In this document: piece by piece, positions 28,846 through 33,331 of the stretch
How the letters are laid out: the number at the start of each line of letters is the position of its first letter
How positions within the stretch are numbered: position 1 is the first letter of the stretch
Assembly: GCA_963666115.2 (NCBI GenBank)
Contig: CAXXET010000001.1
Coordinates: forward strand, 1 to 64,000
Source of the DNA: Dehalococcoidia bacterium
GTDB taxonomy: Bacteria > Chloroflexota > Dehalococcoidia > UBA6926
Direction: 5' to 3'
Length of the DNA stretch: 64,000 nucleotides
Program-made: the position numbers and the translations under genes
Notes under the pieces: model-generated
The model's database searches: none
Told to the model about the DNA's origin: nothing
The model's input: the letters and a program-made list of their open reading frames with translations, nothing else

Positions 28846-29778
28846 ATGGCGATTCAGACTCTCCGCAAGCTTCGCGACCTGTTTGTGGAACAGTCGACAG
28901 ATATTTCGAAGCGATTGGGTTATGTTCGAGAGTCGCATAGAAGTGGCGTCGACTGGGGTTCAATGAGACTCGGTGAGGAGGCGATTACAAACTTGCTGCT
29001 GCTGGATCTCTTTGAGCAAGGGAGTACGGTGCTCCACTTCACGCAAGCATCCAGGCGTCATGAATCTGTTTCAGGGGTCGATTTCGAGTTGTGGATTGGT
29101 TCCGAAAGTACGGGGTGGTTCCGATTCGCAATTCAGGCAAAGAAGATCGACCCGAAAGCGAACACCGGCAGATACTCTTCTCTACGACATGAAACTCCAA
29201 CAGGGAATCAGCAGATTGACCTCCTGGAAGACTATGCGCGAGTCAAACAGGCCGCTCCCATCTATTTCCTTTACAACCACACCGCCGATGCCGGGGCTGA
29301 ACACTGGCACTGCTGTACCAAGGAGCCCGCCGACATTACGCTTGCCGACCTCCAAGAGCTTGGCTGCACCATGACGCCTTCAATCAACATCCGCAATGCC
29401 ATAGACAAACGGGGCACCAGGACTTTCGATAGTATTCACAAGAACGAGGACACCCTTCCGCTGAAGTGTTTATTGTGCCCAGAGGTCTTGAAATCAGCCG
29501 GTTTCACGTCGGCGAGTGATTCCACGGAACAGGAGAGGGATATGCCCACCCTTTCCAACCCAAGGTCCTACTATCACAGGACGATCCCACGCGCGCTTCT
29601 TGAGAAACCCAAGGATGCTGTCGAGAACGAGCGCGGAGGTTCACGCATTTCCCTGTCAGGGGATAACTGGGACGCAGATGACGGGGCGATGGATGGCCCC
29701 AGTCTTCAAGCTCGCAGTGGAGTAGGGCGGCCGAAAGCGGTGGCGGTGATAGAGGTGGACGAGCTGGGGAGTGTATGA
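28846..29778 (+). CDS. PD-(D/E)XK-like protein (DUF6615-like)
   Basis: EEAIT...ESVSGVDFELW...FAIQAKK restriction-fold pattern; GAGG RBS. Confidence 0.7.
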   Translation: MAIQTLRKLRDLFVEQSTDISKRLGYVRESHRSGVDWGSMRLGEEAITNLLLLDLFEQGSTVLHFTQASRRHESVSGVDFELWIGSESTGWFRFAIQAKKIDPKANTGRYSSLRHETPTGNQQIDLLEDYARVKQAAPIYFLYNHTADAGAEHWHCCTKEPADITLADLQELGCTMTPSINIRNAIDKRGTRTFDSIHKNEDTLPLKCLLCPEVLKSAGFTSASDSTEQERDMPTLSNPRSYYHRTIPRALLEKPKDAVENERGGSRISLSGDNWDADDGAMDGPSLQARSGVGRPKAVAVIEVDELGSV

Positions 29779-29893: not shown

Positions 29894-30781
29894 TTAGGAC
29901 AAGTCCCAGACGCGGGCTTTGCCGTCTGCTGCTGTTACGGCCAGGAGGTTGGCGTCCGGGGTGAAGGCGGCCAGGTGGACGCCCTTGATGGATAGCGGGT
30001 ATTCGGCTACGGATTCGAGCGAGGGCAGGGTTAGTACGCGGACGCGTTTTTCTTCGAGGACGGCTAGTCGGGTGCCGTTGGGGGAGAGTCTTACGGAGCG
30101 GGGGGCTTTTGAGCCGATGTCAAAGGTCTGCGTTAGTGACCAGTCTGTAGTCGACCACATATGAATCTGACCGTCGAATGCCTGCGTCATGACGGAAGAG
30201 CCATCTTGGGTGAGTTGCATGGCCCGGGCGGATTGGGCGTGGCCGGGGAGGGTTGCGGTGATTTCGGCGGTGTTGATGTTCCATATCAGGGCTTCGTCTC
30301 CGCCGCCTGCTGAGATTAGGGTTTTGGCGTCGGGGAGGAACTCTACGGCGGCGCTGATGCGGTATGGGGGTTTTAGGGTGGCGGGCTTGGCGTCCGGGGT
30401 GCTTGGGTTCCAGATTCGGATCGTGGTGTCGGTGGCGGCGGATGCGAGGCGGCTGCCGTCCGGCGACCATGACAGGCCCATGACGGTGTTGCGGTGGCCT
30501 TTGAGGATGGCGGCGGGTTCTTGCGAGCCGGCGCGCCAGATGCTGATTGTGCGGTCGGATGAGGAGACGGCGAAGGTGTCGTTGTCCGGGGCGAAGGCTA
30601 TGTGGTTCGTGCTCTTTTCGTGGTGGACGTACTGGCCGACTTCATGCCAGGAAGCGGTGTCATAGACTCGGATGAGGCCGCCGAATCCACCGACGAGCAG
30701 ACGCTTGCCGTCCGGCGAGAACGCGACGGCGTAGGCGTGGCCCTCAAAGGCGTCCAGTTCTGCTATGAGTTGTCCGGTCAC
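29894..30781 (-). CDS. WD40-repeat beta-propeller protein
   Basis: About 7 GH...SPDG...IRIW/VWD repeats; AGGAG RBS before GTG 30781. Confidence 0.92.
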   Translation of the reverse strand: MTGQLIAELDAFEGHAYAVAFSPDGKRLLVGGFGGLIRVYDTASWHEVGQYVHHEKSTNHIAFAPDNDTFAVSSSDRTISIWRAGSQEPAAILKGHRNTVMGLSWSPDGSRLASAATDTTIRIWNPSTPDAKPATLKPPYRISAAVEFLPDAKTLISAGGGDEALIWNINTAEITATLPGHAQSARAMQLTQDGSSVMTQAFDGQIHMWSTTDWSLTQTFDIGSKAPRSVRLSPNGTRLAVLEEKRVRVLTLPSLESVAEYPLSIKGVHLAAFTPDANLLAVTAADGKARVWDLS

Positions 30782-30890
30782 GGTCGGTCTCCTGCTGCTG
30801 CCTGTGAATGGAGGATAGTTTCGCACTACAGGATAGCGATTCGCGGCGCGCGGGGAAACAGAGCGGGCTGATTGCAACTACACTGGGGCT

Positions 30891-31601
30891 ATGGTCAAGA
30901 AAGACGCCGATGACGGCAGCGAGCACGTGAGCGTGAATGGGCTGAGCGAGCAGTTCGGCACGGGCTATTCGTCGTCGCAGTTGTCCGGATACCGGAAGAA
31001 CGGGCTGGGACAGCGGGCGTTGGCGGTTATCGAGTTCCTGCAGGAGCGCGGGCTGGAGGGGAAATCGGTGCTGGACATCGGCAGCGGGATCGGCGCGCTG
31101 CACATGGAACTGGTGTTGGCGGGGGCCGAGAGAGCGACGGGGGTGGATGCTTCACCAACGAATATCGCGGCGGCGCTGGAATTGGCCGCGGACCTGAATT
31201 TGGCGGACAGGGTAGAGGAGCGGCAGGGTGATTTCGTCCAGCTGCAAGACTCCGTTCCCGAGGCCGATATCGTGACGCTTGACCGCGCGATTTGATGCTA
31301 TCCGTCCGTCCAGCAGTTGCTGGCTGCTTCCGGGGCGCACTCTCGCGAGTACGTGGCGTTGACGATGCCGCGGCGGACGGTGTTGATGCGAGTGGGGATC
31401 CGGGTTATCAATTTGTTGCTGGGAGTGGCGCGGAAGAAGTTCCGTGTCTATGACCATTCGCCGGCGGTCATTGATGAGACACTTCGGGGGGCGGGGTTTC
31501 GGAAGGTTTTGGAGCGGCCGGCGGGGTTGTGGGAGGCGCGGGTTTATGAGCGGGAGGGGCGGGCGGGGGTTAAGGACGCCGGCGCTGGACCTGGTTCATG
31601 A
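30891..31601 (+). CDS. Class I SAM methyltransferase with in-frame TGA (candidate selenocysteine)
   Basis: VLDIGSGIG, GVDAS, GDF; DRAI-TGA-CYP at 31293-31295; downstream ORF is in the same frame. Confidence 0.8.
31308..31324 (+). promoter_or_regulatory. Candidate bacterial SECIS hairpin
   Basis: G(T)CCAGC-AGTT-GCTGGC; apical loop begins 19 nt after the UGA. Confidence 0.5.
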
Positions 31602-32163
31602 AGGCTTGGTCGATTTCGTGGCGCATATCAACTAAATCCCACAGTTCGTTCGAATAGCCGCTGACAGCCGACCGATACGGACCGTGGAACAACCAGATGG
31701 AAACGCCTTCTTCTCGAGCCATGGCGACTGCGGGAATGAGGTCACTATCGCCCGTGATAATTGCGAAATGCGTTACGACTTGCTTGGCGCTAAGCCGCAC
31801 AATATCCGAGGCAATCTGGACGTCCACTTGCTTCTGTTCGAGGTTCAGTCTTCCTGCCTCGTCAGTACCGCGCAGAACCAGCCTGCCAAGCCGCACTTCA
31901 AATCTGGGCAGCCGCCTCAACCGCTCGATAAATCTGGCAGCACGAGCATAGCGGGAAGCTTCCTCAGGCGTAGGGGGTTCACTCCGAAACGGAAGCGCGG
32001 TGTAGTAATACGTCCGGAACAGCCGCACCGGCTCGTCTTCGGAAGAACGAACAATCCCCTGAATAGCCTCGCTCAATGCCCGATAGTCGACCCTGACATG
32101 GAATTCTTCTTGCGCCACCTTGTCAAGGTAGCCTCCGTCGATGAGGATTGCGAGCGAAGCCAT
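31570..32163 (-). CDS. NYN (LabA/DUF88) domain PIN-like nuclease
   Basis: ILIDGGY, YYY, QKQVDV, TGDSDLIP. Confidence 0.92.
   Translation of the reverse strand: MASLAILIDGGYLDKVAQEEFHVRVDYRALSEAIQGIVRSSEDEPVRLFRTYYYTALPFRSEPPTPEEASRYARAARFIERLRRLPRFEVRLGRLVLRGTDEAGRLNLEQKQVDVQIASDIVRLSAKQVVTHFAIITGDSDLIPAVAMAREEGVSIWLFHGPYRSAVSGYSNELWDLVDMRHEIDQAFMNQVQRRRP

Positions 32164-32352: not shown

Positions 32353-33331
<979 letters not shown>

Follow-up and report, generated by a model that had tools for sequence, protein, structure and literature searches.

Positions 30891–31601 of the window (the whole stretch of 64,000 nucleotides analysed, taken from a Dehalococcoidia bacterium) hold a single reading frame that is interrupted once, by an in-frame TGA at codon 135 (Table 1). 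This is the only internal TGA of the gene, and the local reading around it is D-R-A-I-TGA-C-Y-P. The open reading frames and the read-through translation bear out the original prediction that both halves lie in one frame and are separated by the TGA alone. The orthologues from 22 genomes align without gaps across 206 codons, and beyond YERE their C-terminal tails vary in both length and sequence. With selenocysteine (Sec, U) at the TGA, the tryptic peptide across residue 135 would read AI-U-CYPSVQQLLAASGAHSR.

Table 1. Features of the methyltransferase gene and of its putative Sec-insertion element (positions in the window).
Feature	Position	Strand	Basis or remark
Predicted selenoprotein gene, complete	30891–31601	+	Open reading frames and read-through translation; 236 codons plus terminal TGA
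ATG start	30891	+	Frame open to the TGA at 31293–31295, then the same frame to 31599–31601
N-terminal segment, residues 1–16, without the family Cys cluster	30891–30938	+	Cys counts compared with homologues
SAM-binding motif I, VLDIGSGIG, residues 60–68	31068–31094	+	Pfam methyltransferase matches begin here
In-frame UGA, read as Sec135	31293–31295	+	Shares a column with the first residue of the invariant CC
Cys136 codon, vicinal partner of Sec135	31296–31298	+	Cys invariant in all alignments
SECIS-like hairpin core: G, bulged U, CCAGC/GCUGG 5-bp stem, loop AGUU, closing C	31308–31324	+
CCAGC, 5' stem arm	31310–31314	+
AGTT, loop	31315–31318	+
GCTGG, 3' stem arm	31319–31323	+
Terminal TGA stop	31599–31601	+	Read-through translation

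The translated product is a class I SAM methyltransferase, with a Rossmann-like fold and a recognizable motif I. Three Pfam methyltransferase profiles match above their cut-offs [Methyltransf_31, 36.7 bits (cut-off 27); Methyltransf_25, 34.1 bits (27); Methyltransf_11, 29.2 bits (21.2)], and Gly64, Gly66 and Gly68 are invariant in 97 aligned sequences. A search with the AlphaFold2 model (mean pLDDT 92.8) gave methyltransferases as the only fold matches. The best solved structural match was ChlM (PDB code 4qdk; TM 0.69–0.74, 21% identity), and a profile search likewise returned ChlM (PDB code 4qdj; E 2.2e-8, near full length) as the solved structure closest in sequence. In the model, a strand comprising residues 125–131 is followed by a loop (residues 132–139). 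An 'LD..xxYP' loop after strand β4 is common to ChlM/BchM (PDB codes 4QDJ/4QDK) and the present enzyme, with Ile-His in ChlM replaced here by Sec-Cys: the profile alignment places Sec135 at ChlM Ile138 and Cys136 at ChlM His139, within the ChlM 'LIHYP' loop. The product is not itself a ChlM/BchM, as its TIGR02021 score of 37.2 bits falls short of the cut-off of 158.9, and Cys136 stands in the place of the loop histidine, His139. A catalytic role is reportedly played by the histidine of this loop in ChlM. ChlM also lacks the N-terminal Cys cluster belonging to the family of 'CC' methyltransferases described below, and the host here is of a non-phototrophic-type Dehalococcoidia lineage, unlike the setting of ChlM.

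The DRVICCYP motif given in the original prediction exists in relatives, where the family consensus around the site is LDRVVCCYP. Its CC pair is retained by each of 18 homologues collected without regard to the motif, and the TGA shares a column with the first Cys of the pair. Both of the groups that were looked for, homologues with Cys aligned to the TGA and relatives sharing the TGA, were found. At the DNA level, a Cys codon occupies the site in each of nine Cys-form orthologues. Within the genus, 19 of 22 genomes have TGA at the position of codon 135 (Sec forms) and the remaining three have TGC or TGT, as do six orthologues more distant than the genus. No TGA was found at this site outside the genus among 401 genomes of the class, 26 of which contain an orthologue (E of 1e-20 or better). 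A degenerate DNA pattern gave four hits over JGI metagenome contigs, only one of which was a real match (L137); it comes from the same genus-level clade and has the TGA. In a phylogenetic tree, the three Cys forms of the genus adjoin one Sec form (support 94/81) inside a polytomy, and a single Sec clade is not rejected by an AU test (p 0.54) from which the long-branch outgroup rows L045, L047 and L048 were omitted.

The Cys forms are uncharacterized methyltransferases of about 215 residues found in Chloroflexota, Gemmatimonadota, Gammaproteobacteria, Balneolaceae and other groups; genomes sampled at one per species contain at least 584 loci. They are 30–68% identical to the methyltransferase described here and agree with it in length, fold and motifs; they differ in having TGC or TGT for the TGA, in lacking the hairpin and in keeping the N-terminal cysteines. 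Their names are generic, public sources name none of the clusters that were looked up and a search of the ESM Atlas with one Cys homologue (P0002) gave only generic methyltransferase clusters. One 128-residue protein (P0176; 39% identity) ends exactly ahead of the CC position; its nearest relatives, ten matches in 401 genomes of the phylum, are full-length and have no internal stop. Another protein, P0046, is 89% identical to the Cys form P0003 but likewise stops ahead of the Sec position.

Substitution patterns in the 19 Sec forms were compared on the two sides of the TGA. The dN/dS ratio is 0.082 upstream and 0.114 downstream, at a mean pairwise dS of 1.13 and 0.92, respectively, and the downstream 86 codons contain no further stop or frameshift. 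The four codons directly after the TGA (Cys-Tyr-Pro-Ser, +1 to +4) show synonymous changes only in 18 of the 19 Sec forms (TGC/TGT, TAT/TAC, CCN and TCN); such variation at the Cys136 codon indicates that this codon is translated. The locus thus presents what is expected of a selenoprotein gene, a UGA flanked on both sides by coding sequence under selection. Since codons +1 to +4 vary synonymously and the downstream half is, by comparison of 19 species, under purifying selection, this comparative evidence shows that the ribosome reads through the UGA.

The hairpin that follows has all of the properties given in the original prediction, namely the sequence CCAGC-AGTT-GCTGG, a loop beginning 19 nt past the A of the TGA, G at loop position 2 and a possible bulged U. 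In the RNAalifold consensus of 19 sequences, G31308 is able to pair with C31324, leaving U31309 bulged. Conservation in relatives, which was also looked for, is pronounced: the hairpin codons +5 to +9 (31308–31322) show no synonymous change in 19 species, and nowhere else in the gene are five successive codons invariant in this way (permutation P of 4.4e-4 for a run of at least five, with 17 of 198 eligible codons invariant across the 19 species). The one change seen in the hairpin, A to G in a single species, converts an A:U pair to G:U. No compensatory double change occurs among the 19 Sec forms, so that the structure rests on invariance and not on covariation. Nine Cys forms have a different sequence at this site and no hairpin.

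The hairpin also agrees with all four bSECIS criteria quoted in a 2026 review (PMC13188914): the loop is 4 nt (model, 3–9 nt) and the stem 5 bp plus one (upper stem, 4–16 bp), the loop has G at position 2 followed by U (G in positions 1–2), the spacing is 19 nt (16–37 nt from the UGA) and the energy is −7.8 kcal/mol, a small margin below the limit of −7.5 kcal/mol. Folding energy was rejected as support for the hairpin, as the 48 nt past the TGA fold no better than shuffled sequences (z of −0.10; equal or better folding in 87 of 200 shuffles). The minimum-energy fold in this genome alone is another, 7-bp register that is not conserved in relatives. Rfam gave no match for the window at the gathering threshold, nor for positions 31200–31450 at E values of up to 10.

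The genome contains the Sec machinery in full: a tRNA-Sec (selC; 68 bits against a cut-off of 47, anticodon TCA), selA (539 bits), selB (330 bits) and a Sec-type selD (387 bits) with an in-frame TGA of its own. selA is present in five of five relatives tested, including the three Cys-form genomes of the genus. Three Prx-like genes of the genome also have in-frame TGA codons, two of them at UxxC. Elements similar to the methyltransferase hairpin occur in known selenoprotein genes of this genome; one Prx-like UxxC gene has the loop AGUUG at nucleotides 20–24 past its UGA, the neighbouring gene has AUUUG and selD has GUC. A genome-wide codon-usage scan for TGA-interrupted genes was too noisy, giving 71 and then 1046 candidates and missing both the methyltransferase gene and selD. 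With canonical bacterial selenoprotein genes, such as fdhF of Escherichia coli, the present gene shares a UGA at a Cys position in a genome that has selA, selB, selC and selD, a hairpin that starts 12 nt past the UGA, a small G-U loop at 19 nt and a bulged U. The fdhF SECIS has the loop GGUC on a 4-bp stem, compared with the loop AGUU and 5-bp upper stem found here. The host protein differs from the canonical ones in being a SAM methyltransferase rather than an oxidoreductase, and its element is known from sequence alone. SelB with Sec-tRNA(Sec) would be recruited by the hairpin 12 nt downstream, resulting in the insertion of Sec at the UGA.

The shared TGA, the Cys alignment, the conserved hairpin and the Sec machinery all support the Sec-containing methyltransferase that was originally predicted. 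We propose that the gene very probably encodes one 236-residue class I SAM methyltransferase with the UGA at codon 135 decoded as selenocysteine, and that the apparent mid-gene stop is almost certainly a selenocysteine at the methyltransferase active site.

Several other explanations of the TGA were weighed. A nonsense mutation could have truncated the methyltransferase at residue 134 and left a decaying frame downstream, as might be suspected from the products of 130–163 residues ending at the TGA that public gene callers give and from the presence in the window of at least one other gene, mdh, split by a frameshift. A decaying frame would drift toward a dN/dS of 1 and gather indels, whereas 19 species share this TGA at a dS of about 1 and the 86 codons after it are intact, with the low downstream dN/dS given above; a pseudogene is thus extremely improbable. 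The chance that the true codon is TGC or TGT and was misread or misassembled is negligible. The assembly is of metagenome type, in nine contigs. TGA stands at the site in 18 other genomes of the genus and in the JGI contig L137, and a public contig of a related strain, which comes from another sequencing run and provides an independent check on the sequence, spans 31182–31378 with 13 differences, none of them listed at the TGA or the hairpin. No RNA run was listed among the sequencing runs that contain the sequence.

Two further possibilities accept a functional downstream half. Translation might stop at the UGA and restart at the TTG at 31317 to give two chains that assemble, in which case the invariant block would be an initiation signal; this TTG (codon +8) is invariant in 19 of 19 Sec forms, and the downstream open reading frame has no earlier start codon. 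The codons that lie between the UGA and the TTG, +1 to +4, are nevertheless conserved as amino acids and synonymously variable, and are therefore translated, no purine-rich ribosome-binding sequence precedes the TTG, and the Cys-form homologues are all single chains in which Cys136, Tyr137 and Pro138 show little or no variation. The prospect of a split enzyme is accordingly slender in the extreme. Insertion of a standard amino acid, whether Trp, Cys or Arg by near-cognate decoding or through a suppressor tRNA, with the hairpin merely stimulating read-through, would fit the small size of the hairpin and a stability that does not exceed that of shuffled sequence, the Sec reading being drawn from sequence. 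It is very unlikely given a complete Sec system that is used at textbook positions (selD and the three Prx-like genes), a UGA on a Cys position, which is the signature of Sec/Cys pairs, and a hairpin that agrees with the bSECIS model and resembles the Prx-like loop of the same genome. Long open frames in this genome moreover end in TGA more often than in any other stop codon (653 of 1489), and there has therefore been no global reassignment.

The N-terminal region of the family shows a second difference in cysteine content. Two to five cysteines lie N-terminal of the Phe22 column in 94 of 96 Cys-form homologues, compared with none in the methyltransferase described here. Among Sec forms the loss of the N-terminal Cys pair is partial, with CC found in one of 19 genomes and in 15 of 41 metagenomic clusters. 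The cluster of the Cys forms may have a helper or resolving function that a Sec-containing enzyme can do without, and its relaxation in the Sec forms offers a natural experiment on the role of helper cysteines.

In the predicted fold, Sec135 and Cys136 lie in the loop right after strand β4 and probably border the methyl-transfer pocket. From this position, and from the alignment of the pair with Ile138-His139 of ChlM, we infer that it acts at the catalytic centre. Among the functional readings, we tentatively prefer a mechanism in which the selenolate–thiolate pair, much like the cysteines of ArsM, would position a soft and thiophilic substrate next to the methyl group of SAM; this could be a metalloid, a chalcogen or a species bound to a thiol. 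The thiol or metalloid substrates suggested in the original prediction are plausible candidates. It is possible, if somewhat unlikely, that the pair instead forms a redox switch (a selenenylsulfide gate) or takes up the methyl group first in a relay, and that the substrate is an ordinary organic one such as a carboxylate. The fold and the whole-length similarity to the O-methyltransferase ChlM are in keeping with this, as is the position of two close Cys-form orthologues (L051 and L052) directly downstream of a gene for a CCG-domain protein (HdrB-like disulfide reductase type); most catalogued selenoproteins are also redox proteins, according to the review (PMC13188914, section 7). Weighing against a switch or relay, the pair replaces Ile-His of the ChlM active-site loop rather than occupying a peripheral site, the N-terminal Cys cluster (94 of 96 members) is no less consistent with a multi-thiolate binding site and the CCG neighbour occurs at only two of 80 loci.

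The neighbourhoods of these 80 Cys-form loci are heterogeneous, with no partner gene or pathway common to them. The 79 same-strand neighbours scanned include seven acetyl-CoA-synthetase-like proteins, five ABC-2 permeases, three proteins of FGE-sulfatase type, the two CCG-domain proteins, one YeeE/YedE and one SulP. In the window, the neighbouring WD40, NYN, DUF6615 and mdh genes gave no functional clue.

Selenoproteins with a methyltransferase domain are already catalogued: Table 1 of the review lists ArsM (NF008823, UxxG), ArsM/AhpD (NF041537), ArsM/DUF2284 (NF041536), methyltransferase/UXPK-star (NF047649) and MduS (PF13649, CxxU, two Sec) (PMC13188914). They share with the present enzyme a class I SAM domain, a Sec replacing a conserved Cys, plausible binding of soft substrates and genes that are routinely truncated by gene callers. 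The motif here is U-C (AIUCYP) with one Sec, in contrast to UxxG or CxxU with two or three Sec in the catalogued rows, and by fold the enzyme is closer to ChlM than to ArsM. The ArsM selenoprotein form NF041537 was rejected (14.1 bits against 510; UCYP rather than UxxG), and neither NF008823 nor NF041536 was among the best 25 of 34 weak NCBIfam matches, none of which, among those 25, reached the cut-off of its model. MduS, compared by its row in the review table, was rejected on the grounds of one internal TGA rather than two Sec and of an Arg three positions ahead of the Sec; PF13649, the domain of that row, does match the methyltransferase.

A single-Sec 'UC' ChlM-like methyltransferase was not found in the 2026 review (PMC13188914), which covers 119 selenoprotein families, and literature searches gave no description of a CC/UC methyltransferase family. 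The word 'methyltransferase' is absent from the available text of the BSepDB supplement, the family table of which, together with the lists of Deng et al. (2026), could bear on novelty. As a member of a family not found in that catalogue, and matched by no NCBIfam model in the comparison above, the gene would extend the bacterial selenoproteome into a non-oxidoreductase enzyme class.

The gene is cut at the UGA by gene callers in public records, where 41 of 41 short clusters end exactly one residue ahead of the TGA, and the whole enzyme is consequently missing from the annotations of these genomes. On a more speculative and distinctly doubtful reading, the CC/UC methyltransferases would be an unrecognized class, unrelated to ArsM, that methylates a soft inorganic substrate, for which As, Sb, Se, Te, Hg and sulfide or selenide may be candidates, while a vicinal thiolate pair in the active-site loop holds it. 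If so, a single selenolate would make the N-terminal helper cysteines redundant, and marine Dehalococcoidia would gain a way of volatilizing metalloids or chalcogens that has not been seen before. Selenocysteine almost always marks a catalytic residue, and its presence here suggests that the enzymes of a large and unstudied methyltransferase family work through their vicinal Cys pair.

The methyltransferase gene (30891–31601, + strand) opens at ATG 30891, runs to an in-frame TGA at 31293–31295 (codon 135; local translation D-R-A-I-TGA-C-Y-P) and stays open to a second TGA at 31599–31601, with a predicted read-through product of 236 residues. The coordinates and sequence features of the original prediction (frame, TGA and hairpin) were all correct on re-inspection. 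The read-through product matches Methyltransf_31 (36.7 bits), Methyltransf_25 (34.1) and Methyltransf_11 (29.2) above the Pfam cut-offs, all generic class I SAM-methyltransferase families. No NCBIfam model attains its cut-off with this product; the top score is for BchM/ChlM (37.2 bits versus a cut-off of 158.9), whose nearest selenoprotein counterpart in name, ArsM/AhpD, is matched at 14.1 bits versus 510. The neighbours in the window (WD40, NYN, DUF6615 and mdh) are uninformative on function. The 3' end of the NYN gene overlaps the last 32 nt of the methyltransferase gene, and the malate/lactate dehydrogenase gene (mdh; 32353–33289, − strand) consists of two overlapping ORFs in different frames, a split resembling a frameshift near 32897–32994 that may reflect an indel in the assembly or a genuine gene defect.

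Coordinates of the hairpin, the neighbouring genes and other genes of the source genome with an in-frame TGA (C6 and C7 are contigs of that genome; other positions refer to the window)
Feature	Position	Strand	Remark
Hairpin element	31308–31324	+	G31308, U31309, CCAGC 31310–31314, AGTT 31315–31318, GCTGG 31319–31323, C31324
DUF6615 protein gene	28846–29778	+	Flanks methyltransferase gene
WD40 beta-propeller protein gene	29894–30877	−	Flanking, divergently transcribed
NYN-domain protein gene	31570–32163	−	Flanking, convergent
mdh ORF	32353–32994	−	Ldh_1_C and end of Ldh_1_N
mdh ORF	32897–33289	−	Start of Ldh_1_N
AhpC/TSA-type gene	C6:445029–445403	+	In-frame TGA
AhpC/TSA-type gene	C7:157096–157452	−	In-frame TGA
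AhpC/TSA-type gene	C7:156421–156777	−	In-frame TGA
selD	C6:420976–421899	+	In-frame TGA

The expectation that relatives would share the TGA, and would show it to fall on a cysteine, was borne out. A search of 61 related genomes with stops read through, in which every orthologue was then checked at the DNA level, placed TGA at the same codon in 19 of the 22 genomes of the genus, source genome included (the Sec forms). The remaining three (G016, G009 and G001) have TGC or TGT at codon 135, as do six more distant orthologues from the same family or order; 'TGA' or 'TAA' counted inside some of these Cys forms are terminal stops, and the translations show CC at the motif. All 18 full-length homologues retrieved by similarity alone (30–68% identity) carry Cys-Cys, the TGA aligning with the first cysteine. 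The pair is also invariant in a larger alignment of 97 rows, 80 of which were fetched by a CC-demanding pattern and so deepen the alignment without being independent evidence.

Over 206 codons the alignment of the 22 genes from the genus is gap-free. Among the 19 Sec forms, pairwise dS averages 1.13 upstream of the TGA and 0.92 beyond it, and dN/dS is 0.082 and 0.114, respectively (0.119 downstream without the 14 codons following the TGA). Changes at codons +1 to +4 are for the most part synonymous (Cys TGC/TGT, Tyr TAT/TAC, Pro CCN, Ser TCN), so these codons are translated. With the codons directly past the TGA translated, both a pseudogene and a stop followed by restart at the TTG eight codons downstream are ruled out; a reassigned genetic code is excluded because TGA is the commonest stop, ending 653 of the 1489 open frames of at least 300 codons. 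Public collections contain 41 short related protein clusters, every one of which ends exactly at the residue before the TGA, where gene callers halt. A pattern scan of JGI metagenome contigs yielded a single genuine relative, which shares the TGA and hairpin, besides three chance matches, and a contig of another public run (∼93% alike) spanning 31182–31378 has 13 differences, none of them listed at the TGA or hairpin.

The source genome (2.07 Mb in 9 contigs) contains the selenocysteine machinery that the original prediction called for: a tRNA-Sec (68 bits versus a cut-off of 47; tRNA-SeC with anticodon TCA according to ARAGORN), selA (539 bits), selB (330 bits) and selD (387 bits). In selD the single in-frame TGA occupies the position where SelD usually has Sec, and three AhpC/TSA-type (Prx-like) genes have one each, with W/T-U-P-x-C in two of them. 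The two with the U-P-x-C motif adjoin each other and have near-identical hairpins (loops AGUUG and AUUUG) 16 nt past the UGA.

The hairpin proposed as a SECIS-like element begins twelve nt past the TGA and was recovered by RNAalifold from the 19 Sec forms, with a further G:C pair beyond the bulged U. Codons +5 to +9 (GTC CAG CAG TTG CTG, 31308–31322) show no synonymous change over the 19 species, although silent substitutions are possible in Val, Gln and Leu codons. Only 17 of the 198 codons able to vary in this way are invariant, five of them forming this consecutive run (permutation P = 4.4e-4 for a run of at least five); nowhere else in the gene is synonymous diversity as low as in this window. 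The sole change in the hairpin, CAG to CGG in one species, turns an A:U pair into G:U, and the nine Cys forms have a different sequence at the site and no equivalent hairpin. The published bacterial SECIS model, in the form quoted in a 2026 review (PMC13188914), comprises a loop of 3–9 nt that has a G among its first two positions and G or U next to it on the 3' side, an upper stem of 4–16 bp, a distance of 16–37 nt from the UGA and an energy of at most −7.5 kcal/mol. The hairpin lies within all four limits as quoted there (loop of 4 nt, A-G-U-U; stem of 5 plus 1 bp; 19 nt; −7.8 kcal/mol). The loop lies at nt 23–26 past the UGA, compared with AGUUG and AUUUG at nt 20–24 in the Prx-like selenoprotein genes and GUC at nt 37–39 in selD of the same genome. 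The stretch is no more stable than shuffled sequence (z −0.10), and the minimum-energy fold in the source genome alone is a 7-bp register dependent on two Ala codons that are variable in relatives. No compensatory covariation was found in the hairpin among the 19 Sec forms, and Rfam gave no match. We infer with high confidence that this hairpin directs SelB-dependent selenocysteine insertion by the canonical bacterial mechanism. Taken as comparative sequence evidence, these data demonstrate read-through of a conserved UGA at a cysteine position in a genome with a Sec system, and indicate a genuine selenoprotein gene.

An AlphaFold2 model (mean pLDDT 92.8, pTM 0.88) places Sec135 and Cys136 on loop 132–139, directly after strand 125–131; in class I methyltransferases the loop that follows strand 4 lies alongside the site of methyl transfer. 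The best solved structural match is ChlM of Synechocystis (PDB code 4qdk; TM 0.69–0.74, 21% identity). The family profile matches ChlM 4qdj over nearly its full length (E 2.2e-8) with 'LDrvvCCYP' over 'LD-VLIHYP', so that Sec135 and Cys136 stand in place of Ile138 and His139, the latter reportedly catalytic in ChlM. Family members, at least 584 loci in one-per-species genomes, bear generic names only and occur mostly in Chloroflexota but also in Gemmatimonadota, Gammaproteobacteria, Balneolaceae and others.

A selenolate–thiolate pair in the active-site loop might bind a soft substrate next to the methyl group of SAM. We give this proposal moderate to low confidence; it is modelled on ArsM, in which As(III) is held by paired cysteines and N-terminal cysteines are auxiliary. 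The pair could alternatively be a redox switch or a methyl relay, or the substrate could be an ordinary organic molecule, and gene neighbourhoods do not discriminate among these readings: no common partner was found among 79 same-strand neighbours of 80 Cys-form loci. Some neighbours are specific to a lineage: an acetyl-CoA-synthetase-like gene lies directly upstream in seven Anaerolineales-type loci (L056, L104, L109, L112, L117, L118 and L124), an ABC-2 permease adjoins the gene in five loci (L060, L062, L068, L071 and L098; four upstream, one downstream) and the two closest Dehalococcoidia outgroups (L051 and L052) have a two-CCG-domain (HdrB-like) gene upstream.

Before the F22 column, 94 of 96 Cys-form homologues have two to five cysteines (CC, CxxC, CCxC and others) and the window protein has none. 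The N-terminal CC is kept in one of 19 Sec-form genomes (G021) and in 15 of 41 metagenomic clusters, and single-Cys intermediates occur. This patchy retention indicates that constraint on the helper cluster relaxes in the presence of Sec, without the cluster always being lost. selA is present in all five genomes tested, including the three Cys-form genomes of the genus, where cysteine is thus not a by-product of machinery loss. In the tree the Cys clade of the genus is nested beside one Sec form (support 94/81) with many open forks, and an AU test does not reject a single Sec clade (p 0.54). The metagenomic cluster P0046 (134 aa) ends right before the Sec position, keeps the N-terminal CC and shares 89% identity with the Cys form P0003 and no more than 80% with any Sec form, hinting at a second Sec/Cys switch inside the genus. 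A distant family member, P0176 (128 aa; 39% identity with the N-terminal half), ends at '...TLDRVV', just ahead of the CC position, and could be an independent Sec form of a different lineage or the product of a gene cut off where its contig ends; the closest relatives of P0176 among 401 genomes of the phylum are Cys forms of full length. In the collections searched, no Sec form turned up outside one genus-level clade of Dehalococcoidia.

Of the 119 prokaryotic selenoprotein families in Table 1 of the 2026 review, none is a single-Sec 'UC' enzyme of ChlM-like type. The methyltransferase-type entries in that table are ArsM (UxxG), methylated-DNA-protein-cysteine methyltransferase, MduS (PF13649, CxxU, two Sec), methyltransferase/UXPK-star, ArsM/DUF2284 and ArsM/AhpD; the table descriptions set MduS and the ArsM types apart from the window protein, with its one Sec in 'UC'. 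The word 'methyltransferase' does not occur in the available text of the deep-Sep paper, and full-text literature searches returned no description of the family, which we provisionally regard as uncatalogued. Selenoprotein-rich Dehalococcoidia were already known, according to the BSepDB paper. Selenocysteine in the active-site loop of a SAM methyltransferase, together with apparently relaxed helper cysteines, would provide a handle on a widespread enzyme family.
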